A stretch of DNA of 64,000 nt, from positions 27,404,001 to 27,468,000 of the forward strand of contig NC_082721.1 of assembly GCF_030144855.1 (NCBI RefSeq). The letters are read 5' to 3'. This DNA is from Hypanus sabinus. Taxonomy: Eukaryota. Position 1 is the stretch's first letter. Every line of letters starts with the position of its first letter. This document shows positions 58,921 to 64,000 of this stretch, in pieces. Made by a program: the position numbers and the translations under genes. Below the pieces are notes generated by a model. The model worked only from the letters and a program-made list of their open reading frames with translations. It was not told the DNA's origin and ran no database searches.

Positions 58921-59805
58921 ACGTCAATGACAAGCTCTAATCCTAGCAGGTGGCTCCCAAGAAACTGGATAATTTCCAGGTTTTAAAGGGGTTCATTGAG
59001 AATATTAATTGTTTGGGGTTGGTGTTGTGATGTGGTGGGAAAGGGCTTCTGGATTACAAAGAGAAAGGACTCCACAGATCAAGTTCCATCTGTGGAAAAG
59101 AAAATTAATGTTTCAAGTTGATGACCTTTTGTCAGAACTGAGAGAACTTTGAATTAAAATTTTGTTTTTAGGTGCAAAGGAAGTGGGGAGAGCAAAAGGA
59201 AAGATCTGTGTTAAGTTGGAGACCAAAAGAAGCAGTGCTAGTGCTGGTGATTTAGTGATGAAAGTGGAGGTGATGCCTGCTGGACAAGGTTGGTAAAGGT
59301 GGGTAAGAAACTAAAGGTATGCCTGCAGGATGTATGTATAAGAAGGGAAGTATGAAATCTGAAATTAGCAGAAGAAAGAAACCCGAATGCTAGAAATGTA
59401 CACGATTGAAAAGAGAGATTAAAGTTGTTGAATATATCATTCACTCCCAAGGGCTGTAACGTGCCATGCTGGAAGACCTTGAACTTATGTTGTGCTTCAG
59501 TGGAATCAGTAAAAAATGAAAGATAGAAAGGTCAGAACAGGAGTGGGATGGAAAATCAAAGTGACAAGACAACCAGGAATTCTGGGTCTCTCATAATGCC
59601 AATGGCTTCCTCAGATGAAGATCACACCATGGACATGATACACAGGTAGTCATTTGGCTATCTGGCAGGAAGGCAGGTGTTGCTTCTCCAGCAGTTCTCT
59701 GGGAAGTAGATGTAAGAGTGAACCAAAGAGTTGGGAAGGGAATGATGCCATCTAGCTGCTGAAAGGGGGAGGGGATGGAAGAAATAAACTATTAGAAATT
59801 ATGCA

Positions 59806-61890
59806 GTTGTGTATTTAACATTTCAGCAATATTTGAGCAATTTTGTATACATATTGGTTGATTAAGCATCCTTGCTCATTTAAATAATTAATTACAGGTT
59901 ATCTGTCAAATACGTTAAATGCATACGTCATCACGCTGCCACATGATGCGTGCGAGCCTCCACCAAGTTACACCCGCATTCCCAGACTCCTGGGTTTCTC
60001 CTTTGACTTAGTTTAACGTTGGCGGCAAGGTATTTTTAGAATGAACCCGACACAGCTGCCGACCTGTTAAAGTGCATTGAGACGCTCAAACTAAAAGAGA
60101 AATGCAGCAAGTAAAAATAAAATCAGCCCAGCACGTGCAGAGTCGGTCTTTGGAAGGGAAGACACGATCAAGTTAAACAAAAAAGGTAGTAACTGGAATA
60201 ATTCAGGGTTCATAAAGAGTGAGTACAGACAGACAGACATACTTTATTGGTCCCAGGGAAATTGGGTTTCGTTACAGCCGCACCAACCAAGATAGTGTAG
60301 AGATATAGCAATATAAAACCATAAATAATTAAATAATAATAAGTAAATTATGCCAAGTGGAAATAAGTCCAGGACCAGCCTATTGGCTCAGGGTGTCTGA
60401 CACTCCGAGGGAGGAGTTATAAAGTTTGATGGCCACAGGCAGGAATGACTTCCTATGATGCTCAGTGTTACATCTCGGTGGAATGAGTCTCTGGCTGAAT
60501 GTACTCCTGTGCCTAACCAGTACATTATGGAATGGATGGGAGACATTGTCCAAGATGGCATGCAACTTGGACAGCATCCTCTTTCCAGACACCACCGTCA
60601 GAGAGTCCAGTTCCATCCCCATAACATCACTGGCCTTACAAATGAGTATCGGATGATAATCACTTAATAAAAGCAGAAGTGGCTGGATACATCAGAAAGA
60701 TGAGTTTGATTAATTGGTTCATGTGTACTGAGCTATTGGAACAGTATTTTGAAGCAAATGAAATAACCAAACAGAAACGAGTACCAATTTTGCCAAATGC
60801 ATTGGATATAAAGGCTTAGTTTGCTTCTACACTTGACTACTCCAACCAAACCACTGCTCTTGTCAAAGTAATGCAGGAACACTTAAAACCAAAGCCATTG
60901 TTGATTGCAGAACGCTGTAGATTTCATAAGTGCAATCGAAAGGAAGGTGAGTCCAGTTCAGCATAGATGACTGAATTGAAGAGATTATCTAAGCATTGTC
61001 AGTTTGGTAGTGGACTTAATGATACACTAAGAGATCGTTTAGTTTGTGGAATCTTAAAAGAAAGCATTCAAAAACAGCTCCTAACTGAGCACAACTTACA
61101 TTTAAAAGAGCAGTGAAGATTGCTGTATCAATGCAAACAGCAGACGGAGATGCAACTGAGTTGCAGTCAGGAACGAAAGTGAGCATGAACAAAGTTGCAA
61201 CTTCTAAACAGAAACCATCCTGGCCGAACAAATTGTGTTACCTCAATGGCAGGCACTCACATATACGAAACAAATGCAGATTTATAGGTGAAACTTGCAG
61301 AAAATGCAACAAAGTAGGATGCATAAAGAGTATGTCAGGCAGACAAAAGTACAGAGACCGCTTAGGGAAGACAAAAAGTTAAAAAGTCAAGTTGCAGTTT
61401 CAAAAAGAGCTCTGATCTGCATGCTGTTGATGAAAAATCTGATAATGATGAGAGTGACCCAGGACTAAGGAGCCTTACCATTTACAATGTGAAAACTAAC
61501 AATAGGCAAGCAATATGTCGTCCACTAGAGGTGAACTGCAAATTAATTAAAATGGAATTGGACTCTGGTTGTGCTGTTTCAGTCATTCCTCAAAATGAAT
61601 TTGAGTGGCATTTCAAAGATACTAAACTGAAGCCTGCAGATATCCAACTAAGGACTAACACTGGAGAAAAGACAATTGCTGTGGGAATGACATTTGTAAC
61701 AGTGAAATACAACAACCAACAAGCCACATTGTGTGTGGTAAGAACAGAAGGACCAGCATTGTGGGGGCACGATTGGCAGAAAAAACTACAATTTGATCGG
61801 AGATCCATCTACCATTTACATGCCACAGGGTCTGCAATGAACCCAACTGAGAGTGAATTAAGAAAGATACAGGATGATGCCACAACTGTC
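59806..61890 (+). mobile_element. Degenerate Gypsy element: LTR-like region, PBS-like site, gag, protease
   Basis: PBS-like TGGCGGCAAGG at 60020-60030; gag remnants EQYFEANEI, LRDRLVCG and CRKCNKVG; protease KMELDSGCAVSVI…ALWGHDW. Confidence 0.8.
60225..60640 (-). mobile_element. LINE 3' fragment inserted in the Gypsy leader
   Basis: ILDNVSHP…SFLPVAIKLYNSS C-terminus; (acag)n tail at 60225-60238. Confidence 0.75.
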
Positions 61891-61929
61891 TCCATGCCAA
61901 TGAACCTTCGCCCAAACGAGAGCAAACAG

Positions 61930-62279
61930 GTGTTGGTGCTAACCTCCGTGCCTCTGGATGGAAGGCATATTGGACCAAGCAACAATCATGCTGCTCAAAG
62001 GAAGCACGTACGTGACGAAAGCACTGGCCCAACTACAACAGTTTTCGTAGTCAACCTGTCTGCGAAAGCTTCTGATACGTTAATCAGGCAGATACTTGCA
62101 AAATGGGACTTGGTTTTAAGCTGGAAGAGAGTTCAAGAAGCTTCAGGAAAGTTGCAAGCATCTGGCTTTTGTGAGTGTAAAGAACCAGACTCTATTCTGA
62201 GTGCATTAAGGTTATTGGATGACCTTCAAATGGGAGACAAAAAACTGCTTGTTAAAGTAGATGCAAAGACCAGCTAGAT
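61930..62279 (+). pseudogene. RBM25: Processed RBM25 fragment (RRM domain) in frame with the Gypsy protease
   Basis: GPTTTVFVVNLSAKASDTLIRQILAKWDLVLSWKRVQEASGKLQASGFCECKEPDSILSALRLLDDLQMGDKKLLVKVDAKT closely matches RBM25 (GPTTTVFVGNISEKASDMLIRQLLAKCGLVLSWKRVQGASGKLQAFGFCEYKEPESTLRALRLLHDLQIGEKKLLVKVDAKT); no introns. Confidence 0.92.
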
Positions 62280-64000
62280 CAGGCACGGGCAAACTATGGC
62301 CCGTATGCGGCCCGTTAAGCTTTTTAATCCGGCCCGCAGAACTTGATGAAATTATATTAATAAACCTTGTTAACGTTTTTTCCCCACAATTCTGGCGTTT
62401 TCCCAATAGATGACGCCCTCTGTATATACATTGACCTTTGTTGAGGAGCGGCATATTACTCCACATTTGCGCTTTACTCTTTGACCTCTCACCCCTTCTG
62501 TAAAGATGAGTGGAGCTAAGAAAAGAAAAGTGGATAGAGAATGTCGGGTGTTTAATAAGGAGTGGACAACTAAATATCTTTTTACCGAACACCGATCAAC
62601 TGCTGTATGCCTGATATGCCAAGAGACTGTGGCGGTTTTTAAAGAATATAATATCAGCCGTCACTTTGCCACAAAACATGCCAACTATGCTAGCAACCAG
62701 TCAACGAAAGAACGAGAAGCTAATGCTCAGAGGTTGGCAGCTAATTTACAGGCTCAATAAAATTTTTTTCACCGTCAAACTGCCATTCATGAGTCAAGTA
62801 CCAAGGCGAGTTTTATGCTGTCATTCAAATTAGCAAAGGCCAGCAAGCCTCTGTCTGAAGGTGAGTTTTTAAAAGAATGTATGGTGGAGACAGCAGGTGT
62901 ATTGTGTCCGGAGAGCAAAGACAAATTTGAAAAATCAGTTTATCACGCAGGACAACGACTCGCCGTGTGGAACTGATAGATGAAGATATAACCAGCGACT
63001 TAAATAAAAAGGCAGAGTCGTTCACGTTATATTCATTAGCACTGGATGAAAGCAACGATGTAAAAGACACTGCTCAGCTCCTCATTTTTATCCGAGGAAT
63101 TAACAATACTTTTGAAATAACGGAGGAGTTTTTGACAATGGAGTCTCTGAAAGGAAAAACACGGGGAGAGGACTTGTATGACCGGGTGTCTGCTGTCATC
63201 GAAAATATGAAGCTCCCTTGGAGTAAACTTATCAACGTCACCACAGATGGATCTCCTAATTTGACGGGGAAAAATGTCGGCCTGCTGAGGAGAATACAGA
63301 ATAAAGTGAAAGCTGAAAATCCTGACCAGGATGTTATTTTCCTTCACTGCATCATCCACCAGGAATCTCTATGTAAATCGGTATTACAGCTGAATCATGT
63401 TGTGAATCCTGTCGTAAAACTTGTCAACTTTATACGTGCAAGGGGACTTCAGCACCGTCAGTTCATCACGTTCCTGGAGGAAACTGATGCGGATCACCAG
63501 GACCTACTTTATCACTCCCGTGTCCGCTGGTTAAGTTTGGGCAAAGTGTTTCAACGAGTATGGGAGCTCAAAGAGGAGATCGGTGCATTTTTGGAGTTAC
63601 TGAGGAAGGCCGGCGAATTTCCTGAGCTGAGCAACAAGAGCTGGCTTTGTGACTTTGCGTTTGCTGTGGATATATTTTCACACATGAATGAACTGAACGT
63701 GAAGCTACAGGGGAAGGATCAGTTTGTGCATGACATGTTCACAAACGTGAAAGCCTTTAAATCCAAGCTGGCTTTTTTTTCCAGGCAAATTTTGAATAAG
63801 TTATTCACTCATTTTCCCACACTAGCCACACTGGAAGAGGCCGGTGCAAATGTGAAAAAATACAGCGAGTCACTGGATGCGCTGCACAGAGAATTCTGCC
63901 GTCGCTTTTCTGATTTTGAAAAAAATGACAAGTCACTTCAGTTGGTGGCCTGTCCCCTGTCACAAGATCCTGAAACAGCACCAGAGGAGCTACAGCTGTA
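62280..64000 (+). mobile_element. hAT (Buster/Charlie, GTF2IRD2-like) DNA transposon, running off the window
   Basis: Left TIR CAGGCACGGGCAAACTA; flanking 8-mer agcTAgat; transposase from 62506 with NLS KKRK, BED finger CLIC…H…H, LALDES, TTDG, HCIIH and RWLS; stop at 62758 and a frameshift near 62930. Confidence 0.93.

Follow-up and report, generated by a model that had tools for sequence, protein, structure and literature searches.

A large, old family of Gypsy retrotransposon derivatives carrying spliced RBM25 sequence in place of pol in the stingray Hypanus sabinus

Background

Acutely transforming retroviruses carry gag-onc fusions, in which host cDNA lies in frame with the viral polyprotein, pol has been lost and a helper is needed. 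The stingray element described here shares these traits, with the frame kept at the 5' join only, and differs in that no env or infection step is evident, amplification took place in the germline and there is no sign of selection on the cargo. The underlying mechanism, long terminal repeat (LTR)-mediated retroposition, is already known. LTR-mediated retrocopies are described from zebrafish, chicken, mouse and human, and the microsimilarity where their templates switch has a median of 6 bp (Tan et al. 2016, PMC5131818). In the available parts of that account such retrocopies, like the stingray family, hold partial mRNA in place of the internal ORFs between LTRs, lack poly(A), show microsimilarity at the switch points and pass through further rounds of copying as non-autonomous elements; they are mostly young and occupy few insertion sites, whereas the stingray capture is present in at least 763 copies and has been diversified by deletion. 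Maize Bs1, as portrayed in the same parts of PMC5131818, is likewise an LTR element with pieces of host mRNA and switch points common to all copies, but is found in a plant, with one to five copies per Zea species and three donor genes.

Vertebrate counterparts are CrocERV29 with KIT-ligand and CrocERV31 with nectin3 (PMC4299795, in which v-Kit and v-Src are also mentioned), old LTR elements that each took up a host mRNA once, multiplied and are found across species. In the sections of that source at hand they are retroviral ERVs of nine and six copies, with the cargo in a separate ORF under purifying selection, whereas the stingray family is of Gypsy type, has its cargo fused behind the protease in place of pol and shows no detected selection. 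In Pseudocercospora fijiensis a mobile element has likewise multiplied a housekeeping gene, leaving hundreds of dead copies, although the histone H3 case outlined in the accessible text involves a hAT DNA transposon in a fungus and inactivation by RIP (10.1101/550798), and host gene capture is described as widespread in gymnosperms in the portion of PMC13477047 available. Against these systems, what is new is that a capture has multiplied so far in a vertebrate genome and that its cargo replaces pol in frame. The copy number is about 100-fold above those given for Bs1 and the crocodilian ERVs in the excerpts cited and is unusually large for captured host cargo. LTR-mediated mRNA capture has here gone beyond a handful of loci and formed a repeat family spread over the genome. 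No report of an RBM25-carrying LTR retrotransposon in rays or sharks was found in the mainly open-access literature searched; Repbase and Dfam may hold the family.

Structure of the window copy

The window, the whole 64,000-nucleotide stretch that was analysed, corresponds to G000:C35:27,404,001-27,468,000 of the 4.04-Gb Hypanus sabinus genome and contains the 5' portion of the element, the remainder of which was read in the adjoining sequence L031 (Table 1). An earlier note on this DNA had claimed a 262-codon frame running from a retroviral-type protease into RBM25, and this frame is real: positions 61489-62279 of the plus strand translate to 262 codons plus a stop that contain ELDSG and ESELRKIQDDATTV (the stop-to-stop extent is 303 codons, 61366-62277), and protein searches match the 5' half to proteins with a retroviral-type protease (Pfam RVP) and the 3' half to RBM25 proteins, with 70% in the case of an RBM25-like protein from Heptranchias. 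Pfam RRM_1 was found at residues 185-253 of the translation (P0001) with E=0.003, below the Pfam cut-off. Among the protein matches listed (64 of 64, the best 120 of 186 and the best 150 of 2,107) none spanned both halves. The switch to RBM25 does occur near the start of reverse transcriptase (RT), although at 61878 rather than at about 61890 as first placed. The frame stops where a small deletion next to the target site of the hAT has shifted the reading, and this stop does not mark the end of the cargo, as RBM25 sequence resumes beyond the hAT insertion.

Table 1. Features of the window copy, with positions in the window or, for the parts beyond it, in L031
Feature	Position	Strand	Remarks and basis
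5' LTR	59805..60017	+	Decayed, about 215 nt; alignable with each LTR of natural copy L038
Primer-binding-site-like motif directly 3' of LTR	60019..60030	+	Sequence; similar motif after 5' LTR of other copies
Later insertion of very high-copy repeat in leader	60226..60646 (right end approximate)	.	Gap relative to L038
gag	60670..61488 (start approximate)	+	Broken by stops and frameshifts; three-frame translation; 76% DNA identity to L038
Aspartic protease and linker to first RT-region residues	61489..61877	+	LDSG at 61558-61569; protein matches
5' switch point, 7-nt microhomology TGCCACA	61878..61884	+	Host exon end compared with 20 RT-bearing copies
Captured spliced RBM25, first part	61878..62279	+	84% to host exons
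RRM within captured RBM25	about 62032-62270		
8-bp hAT target-site duplication	62272..62279	+	Second copy at L031:976-983; sequence
Later hAT-type DNA transposon (Spin-doc zinc finger) splitting cargo	62280..64000, ends L031:975	+	Pfam zf-C2H2_12
Rest of RBM25 cargo, beyond window	L031:976-1250		About 275 nt
Gypsy integrase tail, beyond window	from L031:1251		
Polypurine tract, beyond window	L031:1555-1569		
3' LTR, beyond window	L031:1570-1820		

The LTR pairs of mapped copies show that the family LTR is about 255 nt long with TG...CA ends. In the leader of the window copy, the runs of four other organisms show joints that skip 60226-60711 and very high depth at the inserted repeat. This insertion sits before gag, which is disrupted instead by the stops and frameshifts visible in three-frame translation, a broken gag having been noted from the sequence at the outset. 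The cargo within the window comprises the end of RBM25 exon 2, a 48-nt exon (with 6 nt deleted here), exons 3 and 4 and most of exon 5. No poly(A) follows the RBM25 part when the copy is read through the hAT right end to the 3' LTR, and only two of the five positions match between the 5-bp flanks of this copy. With its TG...CA LTRs, primer site and polypurine tract, and with the 5-bp duplications and the parental domain order of the family, the window element is classed on sequence features as a non-autonomous Ty3/Gypsy LTR derivative.

The hAT element that splits the cargo (window 62280-64000 and L031:1-975) is full-length at about 2.7 kb and looks younger than the Gypsy copy; it has terminal inverted repeats, an open stretch of 356 codons and an 8-bp target duplication without mismatches. 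An NCBI model of Hypanus sabinus, XP_059848386.1 ('GTF2IRD2-like'), is 100% identical over part of the fusion frame and splices window 61838-62080 (linker and RBM25) to about 62950-63860 (hAT transposase); it is probably an annotation artefact and less likely a transcribed chimera. About 1.2 kb past the 3' LTR begins a coding-like stretch, high in GC and in Gln, Pro and Ser codons, that runs to a GT donor (L031:3050-3750) and is probably the first exon of an adjoining host gene.

Size and structure of the family

When a 511-nt query across the junction was compared with the genome, all 40 scored relatives covered it nearly end to end at 80-83%. A 25-mer of the 5' junction had 763 dispersed genomic matches at up to two mismatches and its control none, which bears out the proposal of an amplified capture family with one shared junction and flanking LTRs. 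Two corrections raise the copy number, to about 1,620 on the basis of the 88 exact matches among the 763, or to about 1,500 on the basis of the 27 of 53 otherwise-found copies that match. The corresponding junction of the RT-bearing parent was matched 1,692 times and a 25-mer upstream of both 2,507 times, and the ratio of the two junctions implies that about 30% of the family carries RBM25. Thirty loci picked by the upstream motif led to RBM25 in 11 cases and to RT in 19 (nine and 16 as classed by script, with five rows classed as 'other' assigned by reading), and no other cargo occurred at the same 5' junction in these 30 loci. For detailed comparison, 147 loci were reduced to 121 distinct copies, three being left out for want of a junction match and 23 as duplicates.

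Of about 68 long loci, 12 allowed both ends to be mapped. These copies are typically 2.7-3.2 kb long (n=12) and have LTR pairs with a median identity of 0.78 (10 of the 12), and a 5-bp target duplication with at least four of five matches lies outside the LTRs in seven of the 12, as opposed to one of 132 cross-copy pairs. The order of parts is LTR, gag, protease, RBM25 mRNA, integrase tail and LTR, in keeping with the non-autonomous gag-PR-RRM Gypsy element that had been postulated. In 20 RT-bearing relatives, tblastn of P0089 with Pfam domains gave the order PR-RT-RNase H-IN for the parent family, with the integrase core kept in six of them, and no intact helper element was identified among the family copies examined. 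Most of the RT-bearing relatives (L198-L217) are internally deleted, and several of these deletions reach the purine-rich acceptor, ahead of the integrase tail, that the RBM25 capture also used; this acceptor is a recombination hot spot. Two copies on C1 (L109 and L110), which lie about 5.8 Mb apart in opposite orientation, have one insertion of roughly 700 nt in common at an identical cargo site, reflecting segmental duplication or copying after insertion.

Donor transcript and extent of the cargo

The host RBM25 gene is located on C16 near 113.70-113.75 Mb. It was found with the protein P0065, a search based on the PWI domain having led to other loci, SRRM1-like ones among them, and its exon limits were set at AG/GT. 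Window DNA matches four separate exons of this gene at 84-90%, spaced 1.9-4.4 kb apart, so that the region is indeed multi-exonic in the host, as the earlier note stated for vertebrates. Over the family, the cargo corresponds to host coding positions 147-1218, about 1,070 nt from nine exons. It opens with the last 10 nt of coding exon 2 and the 48-nt exon, continues through exons 3-8 and stops early in exon 9. The eight intervening introns (1.1-6.1 kb) are missing and host intron flanks had no match in any of the 121 copies, which substantiates the mRNA origin first suggested by the intronless form in the window. The captured stretch is internal coding sequence without the 3' end of the gene, and stands in place of RT, RNase H and most of integrase.

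The in-frame 48-nt exon (G000:C16:113706119-113706166, in L092) agrees at 13 of 14 residues with the beginning of the Heptranchias RBM25-like protein, and its motif is absent from all other RBM25 among 329 fetched proteins, the fetched fish and tetrapod RBM25 lacking the exon. Its capture shows that it had become part of a spliced mRNA, presumably one made in the germline, and the copies preserve an old splice form of RBM25 that includes an exon of sharks and rays. They will also confuse the annotation of RBM25 and the mapping of reads in these genomes.

An integrase tail was found within 1.7 kb in 101 of the 121 copies, which were taken as complete cargoes. Nearly half of these (48 of 101) are 540-640 nt long, and exon 7 is kept in 17 and exon 8 in six; the frequent loss of these exons shows that the purine-rich 3' part of one long capture was shortened repeatedly. 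Of the 101 complete cargoes, 100 span the RRM, in a sample partly picked by RRM likeness. L235, one of the 11 cargo copies selected through the upstream motif, has lost the cargo from the 5' junction through the whole RRM.

Junctions and mode of capture

In the 20 RT-bearing relatives, the linker found behind the protease of the window copy continues past TGCCACA into RT, L144 showing GATGATGCCACAGCAGTG, and the end of host RBM25 exon 2 reads TGCCACAACT. The 7 nt TGCCACA hold the same codon phase in the Gypsy linker and in exon 2, and this shared phase accounts for the in-frame fusion at the 5' join. At the 3' junction a 9-nt microhomology, GAGAAGAAA, is common to RBM25 exon 9 and the integrase tail, where the join is out of frame and occurs in all three phases across copies (28, 19 and 14). 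The chance of such sharing in random pairs is 6e-4 for 7 nt and 5e-5 for 9 nt. These junctions fit the microsimilarity-dependent template switching set out in the available parts of PMC5131818. The template-switch capture of a host mRNA by a Gypsy element put forward in the earlier note is thus upheld by the two microhomologies, the lack of poly(A) and the single shared junction, the switching itself being deduced from these traces.

The alternative, that a LINE-made processed pseudogene of RBM25 landed in frame in a Gypsy copy by chance, would account for the intronless cargo, since processed pseudogenes share this property, but is extremely improbable. The cargo stops short of the gene's 3' end, poly(A) is absent from 121 copies (none has a run of 12 A), pol is replaced rather than interrupted, and the cargo junctions show microhomology at both ends and no target duplication of their own. 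A junction common to 763 places, together with the replaced pol, refutes the retrocopy reading, for which a unique junction ending in poly(A) with its own duplication had been expected.

Coding capacity and selection

Along the junction frame, the commonest codon is never a stop for about 375 codons upstream (the other frames have 52 and 37 stops), nor across 203 cargo codons. The form that spread had, on this consensus, one gag-PR-RBM25 frame, so that the burst would have come with production of a fusion protein. Non-synonymous to synonymous rate ratios calculated per copy, with 21% of alignment cells masked, were 0.92 for gag, 1.02 for the protease, 1.09 for the RBM25 cargo and 1.07 for the RRM. 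Among gag variants at a frequency of 25% or more, 24 were non-synonymous (N) and 18 synonymous (S), giving a dN/dS of 0.50 (p=0.021) from which recurrent CpG-type changes are not fully excluded; this hint of gag constraint suggests that the frame was probably used. Linked shared variants numbered 3 N:4 S in gag, 4 N:0 S in the cargo and none in the RRM, and cargo constraint at p<0.01 was found in none of 96 copies. The dN/dS check proposed for the copies therefore gave no purifying selection on the cargo (about 1.1), at low power because a single burst leaves few lineage-shared changes (four in the cargo, none in the RRM), together with the hint in gag. A former signal of gag-protease constraint in linked variants (dN/dS 0.64, p=0.014) was dropped as it stemmed from misaligned rows, and the analysis was redone with the masking given above; frequency-binned N/S counts drift with mutation bias and were left out as evidence of selection.

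In the window copy, the counts are 33 N:12 S in the RBM25 part (dN/dS 1.12), 26 N:14 S in the protease (p=0.19) and 61 N:20 S in gag. All parts of the element decay neutrally, with dN/dS about 1, the window copy included. Its stop-free stretch across the junction reaches 303 codons, against a maximum of 301 and a median of 73 in the 121 other copies. Domestication was considered as the reason for this long frame and rejected on the cargo and protease counts, and in view of the neutral dN/dS the stretch is best read as the chance tail among about 1,500 copies.

It is very unlikely that the fusion protein mattered, that is, that Gag-PR-RBM25 was translated and its RRM released or displayed so as to aid packaging or RNA handling in the manner of gag-onc proteins. 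The stop-free consensus frame, the presence of the RRM in nearly all complete cargoes and the gag variants are what such a role would lead one to expect, but the cargo and RRM ratios exceed 1, no single copy shows cargo constraint, and L235 lacks the RRM altogether. The phase of the 5' join is explained by microhomology, the 3' join is found in all three phases, and no listed protein match spans both halves. The earlier suggestion that the protease released an RNA-binding domain with a role is not borne out, given these joins, the cargo dN/dS of about 1.1 and the four of four linked cargo variants that are non-synonymous; protease release of the RRM, as read from the sequence, would be possible in principle and is unsupported.

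Origin and amplification

The evidence is probably best explained by a Gypsy derivative whose pol was replaced by RBM25 mRNA, captured once through two microhomology-guided switches and spread by enzymes of the parent with the cargo as a passenger. RBM25 mRNA would have been co-packaged with a Gypsy element, and two microhomology-guided template switches would have placed about 1,070 nt of spliced RBM25 where RT, RNase H and the integrase core had been, likely in a single event. Enzymes of the RT-bearing parent family then likely mobilised the derivative in trans to about 1,500 places, and it presumably spread because LTRs, primer site, gag-PR and purine tract were kept at about 2.8-3 kb. Cargo-free deletion derivatives of the family appear to have spread in the same way, and the cargo was most likely a passenger.

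Several observations count against the passenger reading, which depends on a selection test of low power. The derivative makes up about 30% of the family, a share for which no measurement here accounts, and complete cargoes retain the RRM almost without exception, exons 7 and 8 being mostly lost. The 303-codon stretch of the window copy, its two-of-five flank match and the lack of an identified intact helper likewise weigh against the explanation preferred here. It is unlikely that a replicative advantage from the captured splicing factor, through a Gag-PR-RRM fusion or RNA camouflage, drove the capture to about a third of the family; if true, this would represent an oncogene-style transduction selected in the germline.

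With the same origin, RBM25 sequence may have helped at the RNA level, either by blunting piRNA silencing, since the element carries the essential mRNA of a splicing factor in sense orientation and any silencing aimed at it would strike the host gene as well, or by purine-rich exons that improved export and stability. The large share of the family derived from one capture points in this direction, the neutral dN/dS is compatible with it, and the available portions of two studies describe higher copy numbers of Drosophila telomeric elements with captures (PMC13534243) and epigenetic conflict caused by capture in maize (10.1101/777037). Such help is nevertheless quite unlikely, as the same portion of the maize study gives no gain in copy number (10.1101/777037), the most purine-rich part of the cargo is the one most often deleted, and cargo-free deletion derivatives are widespread too, by occurrence rather than by copy number. 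Since the parent family, cargo-free derivatives, cargo copies and donor gene coexist in one genome, a benefit of capture or divergence of the donor can be tested across rays.

Age and spread

The RBM25 capture family is real, old, dead and very large. A tree of the 84 copies that occur in both alignments, built after 21% of the cells had been masked, is star-like, with a terminal length of 10.5, an internal length of 0.36 and a shortest tip of 0.099. Host RBM25 and the commonest codons of the copies are separated by 23 synonymous differences on 171 sites and 12 non-synonymous ones, and the synonymous distance among the copies themselves is about 0.10. The host-copy divergence being about equal to that of the copies, the family would appear to have spread soon after capture.

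Twenty runs from ten organisms contain 11-23% of the words of the stretch. Family sequence is present in all four runs that were compared in detail, from four other organisms (X1, X2, X9 and X13), and position 62063 of the cargo is covered by about 100 contigs in each. The LTR and leader of the window copy are matched by single contigs of X1, X2 and X13 with 10, 12 and 32 differences, respectively, over about 370-410 nt, far closer than its paralogues (about 80%). Contigs of the flank in X2, X9 and X13 reach 30, 29 and 22 letters into the LTR, short of the threshold of 31 letters set for bridging, and the flanks of X9 and X13 differ from each other by about 8.5%. Together these contigs indicate that the window insertion predates the splits from those organisms.
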